Notes: a model not told the origin generated them from the sequence alone. A stretch of 64,000 bases of DNA from Candidatus Collierbacteria bacterium RIFOXYD2_FULL_45_13 (GCA_001774685.1 MFAS01000001.1:415557-479556), one strand, 5' to 3'; shown: positions 3,146-59,196, numbered from the stretch's first letter. Numbers and translations: made by a program.

Positions 3146-3809
3146 GTTTTCCCCTTAGCAGGATCAAAAATCCGATAGCCAAAGATAACAACCCAAATAT
3201 CATAGCCGTTGGCACTCCATTAATTCTCCAGATAATTTCATTCGGACGTATGCCTTCCAGTAATATTCTAATTACTCCATAGCCTATCAGATAGACGCCT
3301 AGTAATTTCCCCGAAAACGTCTTCTTTTTTCTCAGTGTCAAGAGGATTACAAAAAGAGATAGGTTTAATAATGCTTCGCAGGCAAAAAGCGGCTCACCGT
3401 TTTTGCCGTAAAGCTCGCCATTTACCCAGTTTCCCAGTCTTCCAATTGCCTGAGCTATCGGTGCGCCAATAGCCAAGGCCTCCAGCACCGGCCACACGTT
3501 TTTCTTTTTGAAATAACCATAGAGAAAAACACCAAATATCGCACCCAAAACCGCCCCCCATATTCCCAGCCCACCTTCCCAAACAGCCCAAATCTTCCCC
3601 AAATTATATTGATAATACCTATTCCAATAATCTACAACGTGGTACAGTCTCGCCCCCGCCACCCCTCCCACTAGTGCCCACAGAAGGGCTGTCTCAATTT
3701 CCTTCTTTATTTTAGGAAAAGCTAGCTGGGCGGCCTCTATACCCACCCACACACCCAAACCCAAAATGATACCGTACCCGTGCATGGTTACCCCCCAAAG
3801 GTCAAACAT
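3114..3809 (-). CDS. lgt: Prolipoprotein diacylglyceryl transferase
   Basis: Multi-TM protein with the Lgt signature 'GRLGNWVNGELYG'. An alternative start MHGYG sits 8 codons downstream. Overlaps the proS stop by 8 nt. Confidence 0.85.
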   Translation of the reverse strand: MFDLWGVTMHGYGIILGLGVWVGIEAAQLAFPKIKKEIETALLWALVGGVAGARLYHVVDYWNRYYQYNLGKIWAVWEGGLGIWGAVLGAIFGVFLYGYFKKKNVWPVLEALAIGAPIAQAIGRLGNWVNGELYGKNGEPLFACEALLNLSLFVILLTLRKKKTFSGKLLGVYLIGYGVIRILLEGIRPNEIIWRINGVPTAMIFGLLSLAIGFLILLRGKLSRNRTTNQP

Positions 3810-5043: not shown

Positions 5044-5065
5044 ACTGTTATTCTACCTCATCGCC

Positions 5066-5106
5066 GTCATTGCGAGGAGCAGGGCGACGTGGCAATCTCA
5101 CTCCAC
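5066..5106. repeat. Dispersed repeat copy A (GTCATTGCGAG-N-GGCAATCTCACTCCAC family)
   Basis: Left motif GTCATTGCGAG at 5066-5076 and right motif GGCAATCTCACTCCAC at 5091-5106. Intergenic between proS and the ATP-cone gene. Produces the spurious TTG-start N-terminal extension 'MRGAGRRGNLTP' in the ORF track. Confidence 0.8.
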
Positions 5107-5975
5107 TACCTGTTATTATAAATTCAGTGATAACCCTTAGTCCCATTACCATTACCAAGGCTTCCGGTGAGCAAGAGCATTTTGATGAATCTAAGCTCGT
5201 AAAGTCTCTAGCCAAAACAGGACTTTCTGTCGACGTTGCCTCACAAACCGTTGACTACCTCAAGCGCCATCTCAGAACCGGCATTACCACCAAAGATATC
5301 CACGGGCACGTTTCCTTCTATCTCAAAGAAAATGCGCCGGTCAGCAACTACTACAACTACGGCCTCAAACGAGCCATTATGGATCTGGGTCCCTCGGGTC
5401 ACCCCTTCGAAACCATTGTGTCTGATGTTCTCTCGGAATACGGATACAAATCCGAAGTTGGCGTCATCGTTCTCGGTAAATGCGTTACTCACGAAATTGA
5501 TGTTGTGGCCAAAAAAGAGACGAAGCAATTTTTTATCGAGTGTAAATTCCACAACAGTCCCGGTGTCAAAACCGATGTTCAGGTTGCTCTCTACACCTAT
5601 GCTCGATTTTTGGACATCAAGTCGGCGATGGAGCAAAGTCACGGAACCAACATTACCTACTACCCATGGTTAGTTACAAACACCAAAGTGACTTCTGAGG
5701 TATTTGACTATGCGGGCTGTGTGGGTTTGGAGCTTACTTCCTGGCTACACCCACAAGGACACGGTATGTCGGATCTGATCATGGCCGCCGGGCTTCATCC
5801 TGTCACCTTGATTTACTCCATTCCCAGATTCAAAATCAACCAGCTTCTGGAGAGGGGAATCGTTACTTGCGCCAGACTTAAAAAGGCGATTGAAGAGAAC
5901 CAAGTCTCCGATATTCTTACTCACGAGGAAATAAATATGACTTTTCAGCATATCAAAGTAATATGTAAAACCTAA
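5070..5975 (+). CDS. ATP-cone domain + Mrr-like PD-(D/E)xK restriction-endonuclease domain protein
   Basis: 'ITKASGEQEHFDESKLVKSL' is an ATP-cone N-terminus. 'HEIDVVAKKETKQFFIECK' is a D...ExK nuclease core. True start probably GTG near 5134 (MITLSPITITK). The first ~20 codons of the ORF are the repeat element. Confidence 0.6.
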   Translation: MRGAGRRGNLTPLPVIINSVITLSPITITKASGEQEHFDESKLVKSLAKTGLSVDVASQTVDYLKRHLRTGITTKDIHGHVSFYLKENAPVSNYYNYGLKRAIMDLGPSGHPFETIVSDVLSEYGYKSEVGVIVLGKCVTHEIDVVAKKETKQFFIECKFHNSPGVKTDVQVALYTYARFLDIKSAMEQSHGTNITYYPWLVTNTKVTSEVFDYAGCVGLELTSWLHPQGHGMSDLIMAAGLHPVTLIYSIPRFKINQLLERGIVTCARLKKAIEENQVSDILTHEEINMTFQHIKVICKT

Positions 5976-5984
5976 TCGTAACAA

Positions 5985-6350
5985 ATGAATAATATATTTA
6001 TGCGAATCGTCATAGTTAGCCTTGCATTATTTGGAGTGTACAAAATGTTTCCTCAGATTTCGCAGCCCGTTGACTACTATGTCAAGAACCCTCAATTTCA
6101 AACTTCAGTGATCGTTCCGGCTGTGGGCTTAGCCAACAAAGTTCTCCCGGATAAGATTCAAATTCCCACCCCAAAAATTATGGGAGTCACTACCGAATAC
6201 ACTCAATCCCCAATTTCTTCGATCACGGAGGAAATAAGCAGACAGGCCGCTAGTGTCGCCGCCAGCCTAGTCGAGAAATCTTCCAAGGCAGTCTCTGAGC
6301 AGTTCTGTAACGCCCTCCTCGAAAAAATCAAATCCGAGTGCGGTAAATAG
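5985..6350 (+). CDS. Hypothetical membrane-anchored protein
   Basis: 121 aa. N-terminal TM helix 'IVIVSLALFGVY'. Confidence 0.4.
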   Translation: MNNIFMRIVIVSLALFGVYKMFPQISQPVDYYVKNPQFQTSVIVPAVGLANKVLPDKIQIPTPKIMGVTTEYTQSPISSITEEISRQAASVAASLVEKSSKAVSEQFCNALLEKIKSECGK

Positions 6351-6373
6351 ATATTCGACATATCTTAAGTTCT

Positions 6374-6697
6374 TTACCCAACGGTCACCCCGATCATGTC
6401 CAGCTTAGGTAGATATCTCTTGATCTCATTTTTAAACTTCTCGGCCAATCCTGCTGAGTAAGTCGCATTCTGGGTATTCTCCATATGTCCACAGAGTTTG
6501 TTTTCATACAGGCGCACGATCTCCATAATTTTTTCCCCCTCGGCATTAAACTCCGCTTGGTGTTTTTGGGGATCTTTTTCATATCTATCGTGTAGCTCCT
6601 GAAAACTATCAAACTCGTTTTCATATTTAGTTACCATTTCTTCAAAAATTTCTTTGAACTTTGCAGCCATGGAAACAATGTTACCAAAACTCCACAA
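6374..6697 (-). CDS. Hypothetical cytoplasmic protein
   Basis: 107 aa charged helical ORF. No recognisable motif. Confidence 0.4.
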   Translation of the reverse strand: MWSFGNIVSMAAKFKEIFEEMVTKYENEFDSFQELHDRYEKDPQKHQAEFNAEGEKIMEIVRLYENKLCGHMENTQNATYSAGLAEKFKNEIKRYLPKLDMIGVTVG

Positions 6698-22687: not shown

Positions 22688-22713
22688 CCCTCCGTCAGGA
22701 GGGTTTTGTTTTC
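22688..22713. terminator. Bidirectional intrinsic terminator
   Basis: CCCTCC-GTCAG-GGAGGG followed by TTTTGTTTT. A T-run also follows on the minus reading. Confidence 0.75.
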
Positions 22714-22981
22714 AAAAGGGGAGGATTATTCCGCTCAGCATAAGAGTGGGCATTACGCCAAAAAGCCAAAATATGCCAATCAGTGCCCCCACCATGAACA
22801 TCATGTGTGGTTCGGTGCTATTCCTGATGTTGCTCTCAGGCATAAACCCAGCGTACAACGGACCACCTAGTCCAAAGTAGGCGGCTGGGGCCAGCGCCAA
22901 AACCCACGGATTTGGGAACATTGCGGAAGTGGCGATTACGGCCAATCCAATTAGCAAAAACACAACCTGATATCTCTTCAT
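22712..22981 (-). CDS. Small membrane protein, hypothetical
   Basis: Start at MKRYQVVFLLIGLAV with SD GGAGGA 7 nt upstream. The longer ORF-track start at 23125 has no SD. Confidence 0.5.
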   Translation of the reverse strand: MKRYQVVFLLIGLAVIATSAMFPNPWVLALAPAAYFGLGGPLYAGFMPESNIRNSTEPHMMFMVGALIGIFWLFGVMPTLMLSGIILPF

Positions 22982-23136
22982 GGTTTCCTCCAAAATTTGA
23001 ATTTGCAACGCTACCGCTATTATAGGACATTTCAAATAGAATGTCAACCTTTTTGGCTTGGACTTGAAATCAAGGTTTGTGAGGTGAGGTGTTATAACGA
23101 AATTCGAACTTATTTTCGGGACCATTACTAATTAAT

Positions 23137-23240
23137 GGCTCACCGCACGGCAAAATTGCCTCGCGGTTCGCCAACCCCGCCAGCCGGCAGGGTTCACCGG
23201 TCGCGCGACACCGCACCTCCAACTGGGTTGTCGGTGAGCC
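23137..23240. repeat. GC-rich structured element (9-bp terminal stem GGCTCACCG/CGGTGAGCC enclosing ~85 nt)
   Basis: Internal hairpins GGCAA-AA-TTGCC and the 12-nt palindrome GGTCGCGCGACC. The central 8-bp stem is perfect only on the minus reading (U-G versus C-A). About 68% GC. Confidence 0.45.
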
Positions 23241-23267
23241 ATACAAACTCGGTATCCCGTCCTCGTC

Positions 23268-23313
23268 GTCATTGCGAGTTTCGATACTTCGAACCGAAGC
23301 AATCTCACTCCAC
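23268..23313. repeat. Dispersed repeat copy B
   Basis: GTCATTGCGAG at 23268-23278, internal TTCGA-TAC-TTCGAA, right motif GCAATCTCACTCCAC at 23299-23313. Confidence 0.8.
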
Positions 23314-23436
23314 TGACACTCGTTTGGGATGATTGCTCTCCGAGCAAGCGACAGCTATCGCTGTCGCATCTCTATGTTCGCCAAAGATCACATAGTGACG
23401 TGGCGAAGCTATCTCAATATATGACTCGTCAAAATC

Positions 23437-23470
23437 GTCATTGCGAGGAGTGCAATGACGAAGCAATCTA
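23437..23470. repeat. Dispersed repeat copy C (degenerate right end)
   Basis: GTCATTGCGAGGAGTGCAATGACGAAGCAATCTA, then the palindrome CAATCTATATAGATTG. A right-end-like fragment GACGTGGCGAAGCTATCTC sits at 23397-23415. Confidence 0.6.
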
Positions 23471-23494
23471 TATAGATTGCGTTTCCTCGCCATA

Positions 23495-23532
23495 AAATAC
23501 CCACTGATTAGGAGAAAATTTTATCAGTGGGT
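23495..23532. repeat. Perfect 12-bp inverted repeat ATACCCACTGAT / ATCAGTGGGTAT with 14-nt spacer
   Basis: Read directly from sequence. Followed by the further palindromes CTGGC-G-GCCAG and GCCTGC-TTC-GCAGGC at 23551-23585. Confidence 0.7.
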
Positions 23533-23637
23533 ATTAAAAGCATTGAGACATCATTGGCCTGGCGGCCAGTGCCTGCTTCGCAGGCATGCAAGCTCATTTG
23601 TATATAAAATACCATTATTTGGTATAAAATAACCTTA

Positions 23638-23826
23638 ATGGACGAGAAAAAAGCAAAATTTTACCAGTCCTACGCGAACCTCCCTTTAGAACTTAGATCT
23701 GAAATTTGTCTAGTTATAGATGGTGAACCAATCACTTGGAATGTGGCAAAACTGGAAATAGATACTGACACAGCAAAAGGAAACGAGATACTTCAAAAAT
23801 TATTTGACTTACTAATTCTAAAATGA
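23638..23826 (+). CDS. Hypothetical protein (AT-rich islet gene 1)
   Basis: 62 aa. No motif. Confidence 0.35.
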   Translation: MDEKKAKFYQSYANLPLELRSEICLVIDGEPITWNVAKLEIDTDTAKGNEILQKLFDLLILK

Positions 23827-24056
23827 CACAAAAAATAACCGACCAGGAAATAAGGAATCTAGTCATCGAAAGACTTAAGTCAATTTCAGATGAATCCAGT
23901 TTGATGATTGGAGGAGACAAAAAACTCTCAAAATCAGACATGATAAAAAGTGTGAAAGACGGAGATGAGATCGGTCAAAAGATAATCGATATGCAAATGA
24001 CTTATTTGAGAGATTTGGCTAGTGGAAAACTGATGGAAAATATTATGTCACTTTAA
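23823..24056 (+). CDS. Hypothetical protein (islet gene 2)
   Basis: 77 aa. ATGA start/stop overlap with gene 1. Confidence 0.4.
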   Translation: MTQKITDQEIRNLVIERLKSISDESSLMIGGDKKLSKSDMIKSVKDGDEIGQKIIDMQMTYLRDLASGKLMENIMSL

Positions 24057-24060
24057 AAAA

Positions 24061-24702
24061 ATGGCCGGAATACTAATAACACGGCCAAATCATGATCAGA
24101 TAACAACTTATTTATCTCAGTGGTCAGAATATGTCATCACATTGGCCAAGTCAAGAGGTAAATCTGTATTTGATTTATTCAGTACTAAGGCTGAGAGAAA
24201 ATATTTTGAACAATATTTAGAATCTAAGAAACCCAATTTTCTATTTCTAAATGGACATGGATCCTCTGACGTGATTTGTGGGTTTAACGACGACGTTTTG
24301 TTGGATGAAGCTGCAAATTCATCAGTGGTGAAAGGACTACTAATTTTTGCCAGAAGTTGCAACGCTGGTGAACATTTAGGACAAATATTGGTGGATAAGG
24401 GAGTAAAAACCTTTATCGGTTATTCCAAGTCGTTTTCTATTGCTATAAATAATCATTATGTCTTTAGACCTAAGGATGATCCGTTAGCAAAGCTATTCAT
24501 CGAACCCTCTAATTTAATCGCAACAACAATTATTAAGGGGAATACCGTACAAGAGGCACATCACAGGTCACTATTGGAAATGAGAAAGACCCTTTCTGAA
24601 ATGATTTCATCTGACATTCCAAACAAAAAAGATTACGCCTTTGCTCTTTACAACAATATGATCGGACAGGTCGTGATAGGTGACGATCAGGCAAAAATAT
24701 GA
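24061..24702 (+). CDS. Caspase-fold (C14/C11/CHAT-like) putative cysteine peptidase (islet gene 3)
   Basis: 'FLFLNGHGSSD' carries the His-Gly dyad after a beta-strand. 'GLLIFARSCNAG' carries the catalytic-Cys strand. Spacing matches the caspase-hemoglobinase fold. Inference only. Confidence 0.4.
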   Translation: MAGILITRPNHDQITTYLSQWSEYVITLAKSRGKSVFDLFSTKAERKYFEQYLESKKPNFLFLNGHGSSDVICGFNDDVLLDEAANSSVVKGLLIFARSCNAGEHLGQILVDKGVKTFIGYSKSFSIAINNHYVFRPKDDPLAKLFIEPSNLIATTIIKGNTVQEAHHRSLLEMRKTLSEMISSDIPNKKDYAFALYNNMIGQVVIGDDQAKI

Positions 24703-48255: not shown

Positions 48256-48262
48256 CGATCCC

Positions 48263-48306
48263 GTCATTGCGAGTTTCGTACTCGAACCGTGGCAATCTCA
48301 CTCCAC
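48263..48306. repeat. Dispersed repeat copy D
   Basis: GTCATTGCGAG at 48263-48273 and GGCAATCTCACTCCAC at 48291-48306. Intergenic, upstream of ftsE. Confidence 0.8.
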
Positions 48307-48344: not shown

Positions 48345-49133
48345 TTGATTGATTTTTCCCATATTACCAAGTCGTACCCCAATGGCGATGTGGTTCTGAA
48401 TGATGTAAATTTTTCCGTCTCACCTGGAGAATTTGTCGTGATCACCGGTAAGTCCGGAGCCGGGAAAACTACCTTGGGGCGTTTACTTATTCGCGATCTT
48501 CTTCCCATCAAAGGGAAAATAGTTATCGATGGTGAAGATCTTAATCAGATTAAACCGAAAAATATACCCCTGATCAGAAGAAAGGTGGGGTTCGTCTTTC
48601 AAGATTACAAAATTATTCCGGATAAAACTATCGGTGAAAACATCACTATCGCCTTGGAGATTGGTGGATACAACCGCAAAAAAATCCAGGAAAAGATTAC
48701 GGAATTACTCAAAATTGTTGGGATACCGGGTAAAGAGCATTTATTTCCTGGTCAACTATCCGGTGGAGAAGTTCAGCGAGCCGCTATTGCCCGAGCCATC
48801 GCTTGCGAGCCGGCCATTTTATTCGCCGATGAACCTACAGGGAACCTTGACAAAGATACCTCTGTTGAAATCTTTAACCTCCTCAAAAAAATCAACGATG
48901 GTGGTACCACCGTTATCTTGGCCACTCACGATGTTACCTTGATCGGTTTGAACCCGGATCGCAATATCCATCTGGAAAAGGGTAAGATAGTTTCAGATGT
49001 CGATGGCAAACCATCCAAATCGGAGCCATCTTCCGATTCCTCGTCATTGCGAGAAGGTACTCCGACGTGGCCCGCTGGTCCCCGAAGGGGGAAATCTCAC
49101 TCCACCAAGCGTAAAATAAATATCAATAAATGA
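48345..49133 (+). CDS. ftsE: Cell-division ABC ATPase FtsE (with ~35-aa C-terminal extension created by an in-frame repeat)
   Basis: 'GKSGAGKTT', 'LSGGEVQRAAIARAI' and 'LFADEPTGNLD'. The C-terminal 'SSLREGTPTWPAGPRRGKSHST' is the translation of repeat copy E. Stop overlaps the ftsX start (ATGA). Confidence 0.85.
   Translation: MIDFSHITKSYPNGDVVLNDVNFSVSPGEFVVITGKSGAGKTTLGRLLIRDLLPIKGKIVIDGEDLNQIKPKNIPLIRRKVGFVFQDYKIIPDKTIGENITIALEIGGYNRKKIQEKITELLKIVGIPGKEHLFPGQLSGGEVQRAAIARAIACEPAILFADEPTGNLDKDTSVEIFNLLKKINDGGTTVILATHDVTLIGLNPDRNIHLEKGKIVSDVDGKPSKSEPSSDSSSLREGTPTWPAGPRRGKSHSTKRKININK
49043..49105. repeat. Dispersed repeat copy E (long variant, inside ftsE 3' end)
   Basis: GTCATTGCGAG at 49043-49053, extra GC hairpin CCCC-GAAG-GGGG, right motif AAATCTCACTCCAC at 49092-49105. 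Confidence 0.75.
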
Positions 49134-50035
49134 ACACCGCTCTAAAAAATATCCGCCGCTCGCCCTTTCAAGCCTTGTCTGCTGTTTTTATTATTAGTCT
49201 GACCCTCTTCGTAGTTGGCATCTTTACCCTGGTCACTCTAGCCTCTCACGTTATCCTACTCAATTTCGAAACCAAACCCCAGATCATTGCCTACCTTAAA
49301 GATGGCCATACTACGGACCAAGTAGCCGGGCTCATCAGCACCATGACTTCTACCCAAGGCGTCAAAAATGCCGTGTACATCAGTAAGGCAGAAGCCTTGG
49401 AGATTTACAAAAAGAGCGTCGGCAATGACCCGGTATTGTTGGGCACCGTTACGGACTGGGGGATTGTCACCGCCGATATCCTCCCGGCCAGCGTCGAAAT
49501 CACCGCTTCCGATCCAAGTGCTTTCAATACTATTGTTTCTATCATGGAGAAATCAGACATTGTCAGCGCCACGCCACAAGGAAAAAAAGAAATCGACTTT
49601 CCCCAGGACGTCATTTCTGAGCTTACCAAATGGACCAACGCCATTCGCGGAGCCGGACTGATCCTCATCATCGCTCTGACATTTGTTTGTATTTTGACCG
49701 TCATGATTATTATTTCCATGAAAATTTCGGGCAGAAGGACTGAAATTAGCACCCTCAAACTTTTGGGAGCTCAAAACCTCTACATCATCAAGCCTTATAT
49801 TACCGAATCTCTTATCTACGGCTTATTGGGAGCCTTCTTCGGTTGGACTCTTAGCTACATCGCCCTTCTTTATTCCACCCCCTTTCTGGCACCCAGGCTT
49901 GGAGGCGTCATTTCTTTCCCCATACCTTACTGGATCAACCTTTCCCTCCTGGTTGGTTTACTGGCTTTTGGTTTAATCCTGTCTCTCATCTCTAGCTTTT
50001 TTGCCGCCGCTAGATTTGTCAAGAGATCAAGATGA
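49130..50035 (+). CDS. ftsX: Cell-division permease-like protein FtsX
   Basis: N-terminal TM, periplasmic domain, three C-terminal TMs. Adjacent to ftsE. Confidence 0.85.
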   Translation: MNTALKNIRRSPFQALSAVFIISLTLFVVGIFTLVTLASHVILLNFETKPQIIAYLKDGHTTDQVAGLISTMTSTQGVKNAVYISKAEALEIYKKSVGNDPVLLGTVTDWGIVTADILPASVEITASDPSAFNTIVSIMEKSDIVSATPQGKKEIDFPQDVISELTKWTNAIRGAGLILIIALTFVCILTVMIIISMKISGRRTEISTLKLLGAQNLYIIKPYITESLIYGLLGAFFGWTLSYIALLYSTPFLAPRLGGVISFPIPYWINLSLLVGLLAFGLILSLISSFFAAARFVKRSR

Positions 50036-51249
50036 AAAAAGTTTGTTTGCTACTTGCCGCCTTATTTTTTCTGATGGTCCCCACGAAAATATTTGCGGTT
50101 AATTGTGATGATAAGCCAGCCGACAATCTTAGTCAAACTGACCTGGAGACCTTTTGGAAAGATGTCAGTACTGCATGCGCCACCCAGATTGCCCAAAACC
50201 GAAATGACCAAAACACTCTCAAGCAAGCAATCTCGTCTCTAAACGCCAAAATCAACTTGACTCAAGCCCAGATAAATCAAACTACGGTTCAAATTGCCTC
50301 ACTAGAAAAAGATATTACCGTCTTGAGTGGCGTCTTGGAGACAGTCAATCAATCAGTAATCGAACTCACACAAATATATCTGGCACGGGTAAAAGAAAGT
50401 TATCGACGCACACGGATCACTCCTGTCGATCTGATTTTTTCGACAAATTCTTTTGGTGACTACTTTACAAAACTCAAATACCTAAATTCTCTCAAGGCTA
50501 AAGATCAGCTTATCCTGGCAGAACTGGAAAATTCGCGAAAAGATTACGACTTACGCAAACAAACGAAAATCACAAAACAACTAGAAATTGAAAAGCTCAA
50601 GACAAAGCTCATCACACAGCAAAAGGTTATAGTGACCCAGCAAAAAGACAAACAAAGCCTGCTCGCTTCGACGCAAAATGATGAAAAAAGATTTCAAGAT
50701 CTTCTAAAACAGGCTAATGCTCAAGTCGCGGCCTTCAAGAAATTTACTTCTGGAGCAACTCCTCTATCCAATCAGACTCATTGCGATGGCTGGGGTTGTT
50801 ATTACAGTCAGCGTGATTCGGCCTGGTTTTATCACAATATTGGCAACTCCCCCGAAATTTTGGGTCAAGTTGGGTGTTTGATAACCTCCACCGCCATGGT
50901 TGCTTCTCACTATGGTAAAAGTTTAAAGCCTAGTGATATCGCCAGTAGCAACGAACCCTTTTTCCTGGACACTGCTTATATGAAATTTGACCCATGGTCT
51001 GTCAACGGTGTCCAGATAATTCGATCCACTATCAGTAAAGACAAGGCCGACGAAGAGATCAATGCCGGTCGGCCGGTAATCGCCGGTCTCAATACGGGTA
51101 ATGGAACCCATTTCATCGTTCTGAAAGGCAAAGATGGCGACAACTACATTATGAATGATCCTTATATGGAGAATGGCTATGATAAGCCATTTTCTGGCAC
51201 ATATAATCTAAACCAGGTTTTTCGATTTGATAAAGTTTCTGTCAATTAA
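50032..51249 (+). CDS. Secreted coiled-coil + CHAP/C39-like cysteine peptidase (PcsB/EnvC-like putative FtsEX-activated cell-wall hydrolase)
   Basis: Signal peptide, ~230-aa coiled coil, C-terminal domain with Cys in 'GQVGCLITSTAMV' and His in 'GTHFIVLKG'. Overlaps the ftsX stop. Confidence 0.55.
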   Translation: MKKVCLLLAALFFLMVPTKIFAVNCDDKPADNLSQTDLETFWKDVSTACATQIAQNRNDQNTLKQAISSLNAKINLTQAQINQTTVQIASLEKDITVLSGVLETVNQSVIELTQIYLARVKESYRRTRITPVDLIFSTNSFGDYFTKLKYLNSLKAKDQLILAELENSRKDYDLRKQTKITKQLEIEKLKTKLITQQKVIVTQQKDKQSLLASTQNDEKRFQDLLKQANAQVAAFKKFTSGATPLSNQTHCDGWGCYYSQRDSAWFYHNIGNSPEILGQVGCLITSTAMVASHYGKSLKPSDIASSNEPFFLDTAYMKFDPWSVNGVQIIRSTISKDKADEEINAGRPVIAGLNTGNGTHFIVLKGKDGDNYIMNDPYMENGYDKPFSGTYNLNQVFRFDKVSVN

Positions 51250-58296: not shown

Positions 58297-59196
58297 GTGA
58301 AACAAATCCTGCCCGTGTTGTTTCTTTTTCTGTTGTTCTTCCTTATATCTCCTCCTCACACACTTGCAGTTTCCTTCACTATTGATAATCCCGTCAGAGA
58401 AGGGGATTACTATATCGTCGATGCCAGCGTTTCCGGGATCTCTTCCTCCTCAGCTTACGTCTTTGGTATGTTTACCAACAAGGACAATCCTGATTATTTC
58501 GGTTTCACTTGGGGTCAGAAAGAAGATTGGGTCGAGTATCAATCCACCACCAAAGAGTTTATTTCGGCCAATTTACCCATTCTTTTGAGGGACACACTTC
58601 AAAAAATTTGGATCAAACCAAACTATCAAAACCCAGGTTACAAAGGACCGGGTGATTACTATCTGAAACTCAAACGATACACCGGCTCGTCCGACGGGTC
58701 AGCTGGTGATTCAAATGTACTAACCATCCATCTTATGGAGACCACCCCAACTCCAACGCCCACCGAAGAAAGTACCACCACTCTTACTCCAACTCAGACT
58801 TCCACTCCTACTACAAGCTCAGTCCAAGAGCCGACTGTTACTTTGAATCCTACCAAGACTCCTACACCAACGGCCATTAAAACCCCTACCCCAACTCCTC
58901 TTAAAACATCCACTCCTACCAAAACACTCACACCCACCCCGCCCGTCATTGCGAACCCCACTTTAGTGGGGCGTGGCAATCTCACTCCACCCGATTCCTC
59001 TCGCTCCTCCATTCTCGGCATGTCAACCGCGTCTGCGTCTCCGGATGTCATCATTGCGAGGAGCGGAAGTGACGCGGCAATCTCAAATTCAAGAAGTGCT
59101 TTCAACGCTTCAAATCTCAAATACACCTTTATTTTTGGGGTCATCATCACCTCACTTTCCGGAGGTGTCCTGTATTTTAGACACCGGAACGTCTAA
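58297..59196 (+). CDS. Secreted PT-rich surface protein with C-terminal TM anchor (contains two in-frame repeat copies)
   Basis: Signal peptide 'ILPVLFLFLLFFLISPPHTLA', TPTPT linker, C-terminal TM 'FIFGVIITSLSGGVLYF'. Repeat copies F and G are translated as 'PPVIANPTLVGRGNLTPP' and 'DVIIARSGSDAAIS'. Confidence 0.55.
   Translation: MKQILPVLFLFLLFFLISPPHTLAVSFTIDNPVREGDYYIVDASVSGISSSSAYVFGMFTNKDNPDYFGFTWGQKEDWVEYQSTTKEFISANLPILLRDTLQKIWIKPNYQNPGYKGPGDYYLKLKRYTGSSDGSAGDSNVLTIHLMETTPTPTPTEESTTTLTPTQTSTPTTSSVQEPTVTLNPTKTPTPTAIKTPTPTPLKTSTPTKTLTPTPPVIANPTLVGRGNLTPPDSSRSSILGMSTASASPDVIIARSGSDAAISNSRSAFNASNLKYTFIFGVIITSLSGGVLYFRHRNV
58945..58990. repeat. Dispersed repeat copy F (inside CDS)
   Basis: GTCATTGCGA at 58945-58954, internal CCCCAC-TTTA-GTGGGG, right motif GGCAATCTCACTCCAC at 58975-58990. 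Confidence 0.8.
59050..59085. repeat. Dispersed repeat copy G (degenerate, inside CDS)
   Basis: ATCATTGCGAGGAGCGGAAGTGACGCGGCAATCTCA. Confidence 0.6.

Follow-up and report, generated by a model that had tools for sequence, protein, structure and literature searches.

The ftsE gene in a 64,000-nucleotide (nt) stretch of the genome of Candidatus Collierbacteria bacterium RIFOXYD2_FULL_45_13 (GCA_001774685.1, MFAS01000001.1:415557-479556; hereafter the window, with positions counted from its first letter) continues well past the ATPase core that it encodes. The question raised by this locus is what the additional codons are and how they came to be there. The original prediction saw in them an in-frame insertion of a repeat that lengthens the protein and fuses its gene to the next one. 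The analysis reported here supports part of this view: it is highly probable that ftsE reads through one copy of a dispersed hairpin repeat, CGTC-tagged by its architecture, and that this copy is an inherited in-frame passenger in a tail predicted to be disordered.

The gene lies on the plus strand at 48345..49133, starts with TTG and encodes 262 residues. In the list of open reading frames (ORFs) it is stop-free in frame up to the TGA at 49131-49133, which is part of an ATGA overlap (49130-49133) with the ATG of ftsX at 49130; that ftsE ends only in this overlap had been correctly seen. The product is identified as FtsE by its ABC_tran domain (Pfam, E=1.3e-34), in which the Walker A and B, signature and H-loop motifs are present, and by the adjoining, coupled ftsX. 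Solved FtsE chains (PDB) align to residues 1-219/220 of the window protein with E=7.5e-63, and an AlphaFold2 model computed from a 41-sequence alignment is confident for the core (residues 1-220), its predicted local distance difference test score (pLDDT) staying high to about residue 220. On these grounds the ATPase core is placed at residues 1-219 (48345..49001, plus strand). The sequence IVSD, formerly located near residue 225, ends at residue 218, and the extension that follows comprises 44 residues (219-262) rather than the 35 initially counted, for which a string of 40 had been quoted.

Nor is this extension wholly a translation of the repeat, as had been supposed. The repeat encodes only residues 233-254 (22 amino acids, SSLREGTPTWPAGPRRGKSHST; nt 49041-49106), about half of the tail, and 7 of these 22 residues come from a 21-nt secondary insertion. 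The copy itself spans 49042..49105 on the plus strand, with left arm CGTCATTGCGAG and right arm AATCTCACTCCAC, and is read in frame as SSLREGTPT..SHST. It is preceded by residues 219-232, a linker typical of the lineage, of which residues 220-232 (DGKPSKSEPSSDS; 49002..49040, plus strand) are a native variable segment that is poorly conserved and differs among orthologues. It is followed by residues 255-262 (KRKININK), an end that is conserved in relatives without the repeat; this basic C-terminus and the translation-initiation region of ftsX occupy 49106..49133 on the plus strand and are 100% identical to L001, the closest genome (related loci and contigs are designated here by L numbers). 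In the AlphaFold2 model residues 223-253 have a pLDDT below 50 and no secondary structure, so that the ftsE copy of the repeat is predicted to sit in a disordered tail.

An FtsE of unusual length invites the suspicion that a sequencing or assembly error has removed the true stop, or that the protein ends near residue 225 and the annotated stop lies downstream of the genuine one. Nothing but the length speaks for such an artefact, which can be dismissed for all practical purposes. There is no in-frame stop before 49131. The L001 genome, a separate assembly with 87% amino acid identity and ~80% nucleotide identity in coding sequence, carries this element in its ftsE tail as well, with position and frame unchanged (SSLREGTPTRQSHSTKRKININK), and it is this independent occurrence that rules the artefact out. 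Within the region the two genomes differ by one substitution in the repeat, by several linker substitutions and an indel of 3 nt in that linker, and by 21 nt (49072-49092) that are absent from L001. All these indels are multiples of 3, and no frameshift is needed across 49000-49110, which covers the interval 49000-49045 where an error had been suspected. Orthologues, moreover, range from 221 to 274 residues and their tails end at the ftsX start. The ORF is thus truly long and does carry an in-frame copy of the repeat.

Long tails are found in many of these orthologues, which come from the Microgenomates. They are variable, rich in Lys, Ser and Glu, have a median length of 24 residues after ..EKGKI and, in most relatives, run into the ATGA overlap with ftsX. 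Both this overlap and a basic C-terminus of the form ...KRKI(N/K).. occur in relatives without the repeat (L005, L006, L007, L008 and L010), and for this reason the tail and its coupling to ftsX are older than the repeat. From this sequence comparison, the ATGA overlap and the KRKININK end are read as ancestral and the repeat as an internal insertion into a pre-existing tail; the earlier notion that the repeat joined ftsE to the beginning of ftsX has to be abandoned. It had also been argued that a long-tailed orthologue lacking the repeat would speak against an insertion. Such an orthologue exists in L006, where FtsE has 257 residues and a long, repeat-free tail; it dates the tail before the repeat and leaves the in-frame insertion itself untouched.

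The inserted sequence belongs to a family dispersed through the window. Allowing at most one mismatch, GTCATTGCGAG has seven matches in the 64 kb, all on the plus strand, for an expectation of ~0.75, and seven were reached in 0 of 100 shuffles; the match inside the ftsE tail starts at 49043. The copies share the architecture CGTCATTGCGAG - variable 9-45 nt - (G)CAATCTCACTCCAC, laid out as a CGTC tag at the 5′ end, the ATTGC/GCAAT basal stem, an apical hairpin that varies from copy to copy, and the tail C-TCACTCCAC at the 3′ end. Six of the seven begin CGTCATTGC..; the ftsE-tail copy reads CTCGTCATTGCGAG and the copy at 59050 reads TGTCATCATTGC. Four of the seven are intergenic. One of these lies just upstream of ftsE, at 48262..48306 on the plus strand, and its counterpart at the orthologous place in L001 is 100% identical; because of it, two co-oriented copies flank ftsE. 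The GC skew is negative throughout the window, and orientation with respect to replication and to transcription is therefore inseparable. No described RNA family covers the repeat in Rfam scans: a gathering-threshold scan of the whole window returned only three tRNAs, and an E-value scan of 22900-24100 gave nothing credible.

The family extends far beyond the window. A scan of metagenome contigs with an exact pattern for both arms matched at least 116 contigs, and 84 copies (65 unique) among the matches listed were taken as a sample. The 65 unique copies differ extremely in their interiors, which mostly form a small hairpin (for example CCCGAAGGG, GTCGCC-TA-GGCGAC, ACCCGCC-CCGG-CGGGT and GAGCGAAGC), and the ATTGC:GCAAT basal stem is present in the minimum-free-energy fold, calculated with DNA parameters, of 50 of them. 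Forty-four of the 65 are open in all three forward frames; on the reverse strand none is, with a mean of 1.3 open frames. By crude ORF calling, 34 of the 84 copies are inside long ORFs (23 on the same strand, 11 on the opposite one) and 44 are intergenic. The intragenic copies concentrate in Pro/Ser/Thr-rich linkers and near termini. The strand bias of the metagenome copies is weaker than in the Collierbacteria loci, where 22 of 23 copies are on the plus strand when the loci are oriented with ftsE on plus.

The tail of FtsE has received such elements more than once. Peptides encoded by hairpin repeats occur in 13 of the 120 best orthologue tails and in three frames (SSLR.., VIAS.. and RHS..), and the DNA of L002, L004, L008 and L009 has different hairpin elements at this position: GTCATTCCTGCGAAGGCAGGAATCC in L004 and L009, GTCATTCCGGGCTTGACCCGGAATCC in L008, and in L002 an ATTGC-type element read in the VIAS frame. 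Two elements are present in L009 and three in L159. In L010 (3650-3670) the FtsE tail is short (..SDSESHSTKPKTKNK) and GAATCTCACTCTAC follows immediately after the core; judged by its sequence, it may be a relic of the right arm of the repeat after a deletion.

These observations bear on the idea that selection has acted on SSLREGTPT.. as a protein motif of FtsE, for instance an interaction tail, and that the DNA repeats are a by-product. The peptide SSLREG(T/I)PT does recur in the FtsE tails of the window, L001, P0004 and P0022. The same DNA element, however, is intergenic in four of the seven window copies, its translation in FtsE orthologues and other proteins uses three different frames, and the tail that holds it is predicted to be disordered, which makes a selected motif very improbable.

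A passenger that is tolerated because it does no harm would account for the distribution in the following way. FtsE of Collierbacteria and other Microgenomates possesses a variable, Lys/Ser-rich tail, predicted to be disordered, and the final codons of this tail (..KRKI(N/K)..) are shared with the beginning of ftsX; translation of ftsX and of the next gene would probably depend on ribosomes arriving at the ATGA junction. Since ribosomes must reach the conserved end and this junction, only insertions that are stop-free and a multiple of 3 would survive. Persistence would thus be governed by a survivorship filter, which would retain insertions with these two properties if they fall in a disordered segment. 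The repeat, usually open in three frames forward and never in reverse, would be a tolerated passenger in one orientation, and the 22 residues that it encodes would act as an inert spacer. In the lineage of the window, the 43-nt element was later enlarged by a 21-nt mini-hairpin.

The dating of the insertion rests on comparison with more distant carriers. L158 (P0022) and L159 (P0004), whose FtsE identity is 74-75%, carry the element as well, with site and frame unaltered. The ftsE-tail copies of the window, L001, L158 and L159 share GAG-A-AGGTA, a variant absent from the 65 other unique copies among the matches listed, and the shared variant argues for one old insertion. As an alternative, the common site could reflect recurrent insertion by a site-preferring element or the recombinational spread of a tail allele. 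It is favoured by the presence of the element in the distant L158 (74%) together with its lack in L005 (86%) and L007, by the other elements or frames of L002 and L003, and by the several hairpin types that the FtsE tail and the spacer upstream of ftsE carry in relatives. Against it stand the diagnostic A (GAG-A-AGG) of the ftsE-tail copies and the fact that all four lineages use one frame, a point in favour of common descent. This alternative is considered rather unlikely, and a single inherited insertion remains the preferred reading.

The ftsE-tail element measures 43 nt without and 64 nt with the secondary insertion CCGCTGGTCCCCGAAGGGGGA (49072..49092, plus strand). This segment forms a mini-hairpin (TCCCC-GAA-GGGGA), splits the right arm as GC|AAT and adds seven codons; it is not in L001. 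Because it has no second copy in the window, a local templated duplication was judged unlikely as its source. Kin of the segment with a compensatory stem change (CCGCTGGTACCCGAAGGGGTA) lie within other hairpin repeats of L006. Similarly, the tail copy of L002 has, near the same spot, a nested palindrome of 21 nt, CCTGCCCGTCCGGCAGGCGGG (L002 3727-3747), and a palindrome CCTGCC..GGCAGG of 20-21 nt, which encodes LPAGKEG or LPAGRQA, follows GATGGC in L002, L003 and L005 (~3655-3685 in these three) and in L159. These mini-palindromes (20-21 nt; CCTGCC..GGCAGG, CCGCTGGTNCCCGAAGGGGNA) are multiples of 3 and occur either directly in the FtsE tail or nested in a repeat; nested ones are also seen in metagenome repeat copies.

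Several results do not sit easily with an inherited, neutral, CGTC-type passenger and weigh against it. The distribution is patchy, L005 (86% identity) and L007 being without the repeat and L158 (74%) having it, and simple vertical inheritance therefore needs losses, replacement or recombination. The ftsE-tail copies of the window, L001 and L158 fold no better than shuffles, either as RNA or as DNA, and in the window copy the basal stem is split by the 21-nt insertion. The published search string for Ssn-related motifs (SRM), HGTCWYN(0-2)YYVSBRHN(0-5)WNVSBRGN(0-2)RNCYNB (PMC11893778), matches the Neisseria NTS consensus and matches no window copy and no tail element of the relatives. No gene for a GIY-YIG nuclease of the Ssn type was detected in the 64-kb window by regular expression, tblastn or hidden Markov model (HMM). 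Translation of FtsE through the repeat-encoded tail is itself inferred from the uninterrupted frame. Finally, the third codon positions of the window and L001 are identical at 23 of 23 sites in the repeat and gene end, compared with 54.5% in the core (P ~9e-7), and at 15 of 15 in the repeat alone, an identity that a pure neutral passenger does not predict. For the copies flanking ftsE, such identity is more readily explained by constraint on the nucleotides, or by concerted evolution among copies, than by neutral drift.

It is this conservation that gives weight to another view, in which the tail copy is a maintained cis-acting element. Together with the copy at 48262-48306 it would form an NTS-gene-NTS arrangement, at which a GIY-YIG nuclease of the Ssn type, acting on single-stranded DNA, would limit the recombination of incoming DNA at the essential ftsEX locus; alternatively, it would affect ftsE and ftsX post-transcriptionally. 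Both copies are kept in L001, the upstream one at 100% and the tail one at 15 of 15 third positions against a background of 54.5%, and the arms are conserved in L158 and L159 despite FtsE identities of only 74-75%. The NTS-gene-NTS configuration and the function of Ssn are described in Neisseria (PMC11893778), and in L066 a GIY-YIG ORF adjoins an almost identical copy. On the other side, the window tail copy, with its split basal stem, shows no significant folding; neither the window nor 20 kb of L158 yielded an ssn gene; matches to RNA families are nil; and concerted evolution, through gene conversion among copies, could equally produce the conservation. A maintained cis-element is accordingly possible but doubtful. 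The candidate of a strong regulatory hairpin at the ftsE-ftsX junction was dropped, as the tail copies fold no better than shuffles.

The search for GIY-YIG genes covered the window and ~0.9 Mb of loci and used regular expressions, tblastn with YhbQ/YazA-like queries and an HMM built from 120 homologues. It recovered only one gene, in L138, and a partial ORF in L066. In L066 (1-560, minus strand), lepA is followed by two copies of the repeat family of the window; the GIY-YIG ORF (..KRIPCIYIMSNEYNTTIYIGVTSN) starts 20 nt after the second copy and is partial, at the contig end, and the copy beside it is almost identical to the window copy at 48263. From this arrangement the ORF is a candidate for the cognate Ssn-type nuclease. 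A padded, partly synthetic 45-residue query retrieved only generic short GIY-YIG fragments and not the L066 protein. The L138 gene (99 residues, Pfam E=1.8e-14; L138 700-2600) has hairpin arrays on both sides, with two repeat types on opposite strands (GTCATTTCGAGCGAAGCCGAGAAATC; GTCATCTCGACCGTAGCG..GAGAGATC), a layout that fits the published NTS-ssn-NTS one. It was discarded as evidence for the Candidate Phyla Radiation (CPR), the homologue search showing it to be of Pedobacter type and not from the CPR. A link of the repeat to Ssn nucleases is a plausible hypothesis.

A broader proposal can be built on this link. The CGTC/NTS-like hairpins of the CPR would be Ssn-type recognition sites under nucleotide selection even within genes, the pair that brackets ftsE would shield the essential ftsEX-hydrolase operon against being replaced by incoming DNA, and disordered tails would serve as landing pads for such sites. 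CPR bacteria are thought to depend on DNA uptake. The proposal is distinctly unlikely as a whole; if true, landing pads would make room for Ssn sites in genomes that have hardly any intergenic space.

The surroundings of ftsE are those of a compact operon. The ftsX gene (49130..50035, plus strand; 301 residues) has Pfam FtsX and FtsX_ECD matches and an N-terminus, MNTALKNIRRSPFQ, conserved in relatives. Its stop overlaps the ATG of the next gene at 50032 in a second ATGA. This next gene (50032..51249, plus strand) encodes a PcsB-like coiled coil, with a weak CC_PcsB match, and a C39-like peptidase (Pfam Peptidase_C39_2, E=8.5e-11). Because of the two ATGA overlaps (49130 and 50032), ftsE, ftsX and the PcsB-like/C39-peptidase gene look translationally coupled, and the ftsE-ftsX-PcsB-like chain (49130-51249) suggests an FtsEX-controlled cell-wall hydrolase module in a CPR genome. 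In L006, the 635-nt intergenic stretch 3′ of the PcsB-like gene (5890-6525) contains at least eight co-oriented hairpin repeats of several types (GTCATTCTGAAC.., GTCATTGCGAA.., GTCATTCCCGAC.. and GTCATCCTCGCGAG..) in a BIME-like mosaic layout.

The remaining copies of the window, all on the plus strand, are found in varied settings. One (5065..5106) lies between divergent genes and overlaps the mechanical TTG start of an ORF with ATP-cone and Mrr_cat domains (5070..5975; MRGAGRRGNLTPL..), and L067 is arranged alike; the true start of this ORF is probably downstream, in which case the copy would likely be 5′ leader rather than coding sequence. Two others are associated with a non-coding region of ~520 nt (23100-23640) between the divergent genes 22712..23125 (minus) and 23638..23826 (plus). 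The first, at 23267..23313, was located by pattern match and contig alignment and is embedded in this conserved region. The second, at 23436..23480, has a perfect 9-bp stem (fold z-score = -7.4) and is present in the window and in L112; L081, L117, L064 and L134 have ~11 unrelated nt instead, with no obvious target-site duplication. On this alignment, the filled and empty sites show gain or loss of the element. The region as a whole is 80-89% identical in the five metagenome contigs (L081, L117, L064, L134 and L112), and RNAalifold predicts for it a multi-hairpin structure with six pairs showing compensatory changes; it has no Rfam, tRNA or tmRNA match. According to this model, the region may represent a structured RNA or leader not described before.

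The last two copies are again read in frame. One, at 58944..58990, lies in the linker of what is predicted to be a surface protein and is read in the VIA frame, and a degenerate one follows at 59050..59083; ORF 58297..59196 (299 residues) reads through both in the VIA frame (PVIANPTLVGRGNLTPP, VIIARSGSDAAISNS). This ORF has an N-terminal hydrophobic stretch resembling a signal peptide, a Pro/Thr-rich linker and a C-terminal hydrophobic stretch resembling a membrane anchor, and has no Pfam domain. The matching ORF of L116 (277 residues) has an in-frame copy in the VIA frame too.

What follows for annotation is that the long FtsE is real and that CPR peptides such as SSLRG..NLTP, VIAS.., RHCE.. 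and VIPAKAGI.. are translated hairpin repeats, neither domains nor errors. In these compact genomes a sizeable share of the copies lies in frame in genes, preferentially in disordered tails and linkers, and hairpin elements of different kinds, read in one or another of the three frames, have entered the FtsE tail time and again. Whether the repeats are functional Ssn sites in the CPR can be approached through the unexpectedly strict conservation of the ftsE copies at the nucleotide level. As a single case the finding is modest; it would be weightier if the conserved copies prove to be such sites.

How, then, does the element compare with known systems? Literature searches on palindromic repeats of CPR/Patescibacteria gave nothing specific. 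In-frame palindromic repeats as such are already known since the Rickettsia palindromic elements (RPEs), which are found in frame in genes for functional proteins (Ogata et al. 2000, Science 290:347; reviewed in PMC10969869). The likeness is one of behaviour only: a selfish palindrome, in frame, tolerated in exposed or flexible parts and inherited among related species. RPE-1-type elements are ~100-150 bp long and encode one conserved peptide (PMC10969869), whereas the window element is 43-64 nt long, can be translated in any of three frames and occupies a disordered C-terminal tail instead of a folded domain; it is thus not of the RPE-1 type.

A closer relationship is seen with the CGTC-tagged REPs (Di Nocera, De Gregorio and Rocco 2013, BMC Genomics 14:522; PMC3733652). 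These have an unpaired CGTC, with TGTC/CCTC as variants, a stem starting A-T, T-A and a short tail. The superfamily includes Neisseria dRS3 (CGTC-1) and Rickettsia conorii RPE-6/RPE-4, is reported from five phyla, mostly from alpha-Proteobacteria, and has no known dedicated transposase; in-frame intragenic copies are documented (PMC3733652). The window repeat likewise has an unpaired 5′ CGTC (six of seven copies), a stem that opens A-T, T-A (ATTGC/GCAAT) and a short unpaired 3′ tail beginning with C. It is dispersed in multiple copies beyond chance (7 against 0.75 in 64 kb), is found near gene ends and, as in L006, in clusters of mixed type, and its in-frame copies are often at protein termini or in linkers. 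The four families CGTC-1 to -4 have a continuous stem of 8-9 bp, a loop of 4-5 nt and a CCA tail (PMC3733652). The window repeat, by contrast, has a bipartite stem (5-bp basal part, internal loop, variable apical part of 3-7 bp), a longer tail (CTCACTCCAC), a length of 40-65 nt and a CPR host. It falls outside the four published families because of this bipartite stem and tail, and its intragenic share looks high, at ~25-40% of the 84 copies by crude ORF calling. The elements of L004, L008 and L009 (GTCATTCC..GGAATCCA) do fit the published stem, loop and tail form.

The comparison can be extended to the Neisseria NTS (CGTCATTCCCGCGMAVGCGGGAATCYRG), which, with related hairpins, is bound and cut by small GIY-YIG Ssn nucleases as single-stranded DNA only and in one orientation (Chenal et al. 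2025, Nat Commun 16:2388; PMC11893778). The determinants of cleavage and binding by SsnA are the nucleotides on the CGTC side and the C right after the palindrome; the loop tolerates replacement or extension, DNA flanked by NTS has lower transformation, and ssn genes are typically flanked by repeats (PMC11893778). NTS are rarely intragenic, 2% being so in N. meningitidis (PMC11893778), and in this respect, as in the lack of an ssn gene in the window, the present repeat differs. Its first 7 nt (CGTCATT) and its end (AATC) nevertheless match the consensus CGTCATTCCCGCGMAVGCGGGAATCYRG, it is oriented, and its loop is variable, in keeping with the tolerance of NTS for loop extensions. The SsnA determinants are present as CGTC-ATTGC..GCAAT-C in intact copies, the 3′ arm of the window ftsE copy being split by 21 nt. 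The FtsE-tail elements of L004, L008 and L009 come still nearer to the NTS (CGTCATTCC...GGAATCC, for CGTCATTCC...GGAATC in the NTS), and the two co-oriented copies around ftsE and the GIY-YIG ORF adjoining a copy in L066 are further points of likeness. Taken together, these features identify the ftsE-tail element, by its architecture, as a CPR-borne member of the CGTC/NTS-like hairpin class, and they extend to the Candidate Phyla Radiation a superfamily that had been documented mainly in Proteobacteria.

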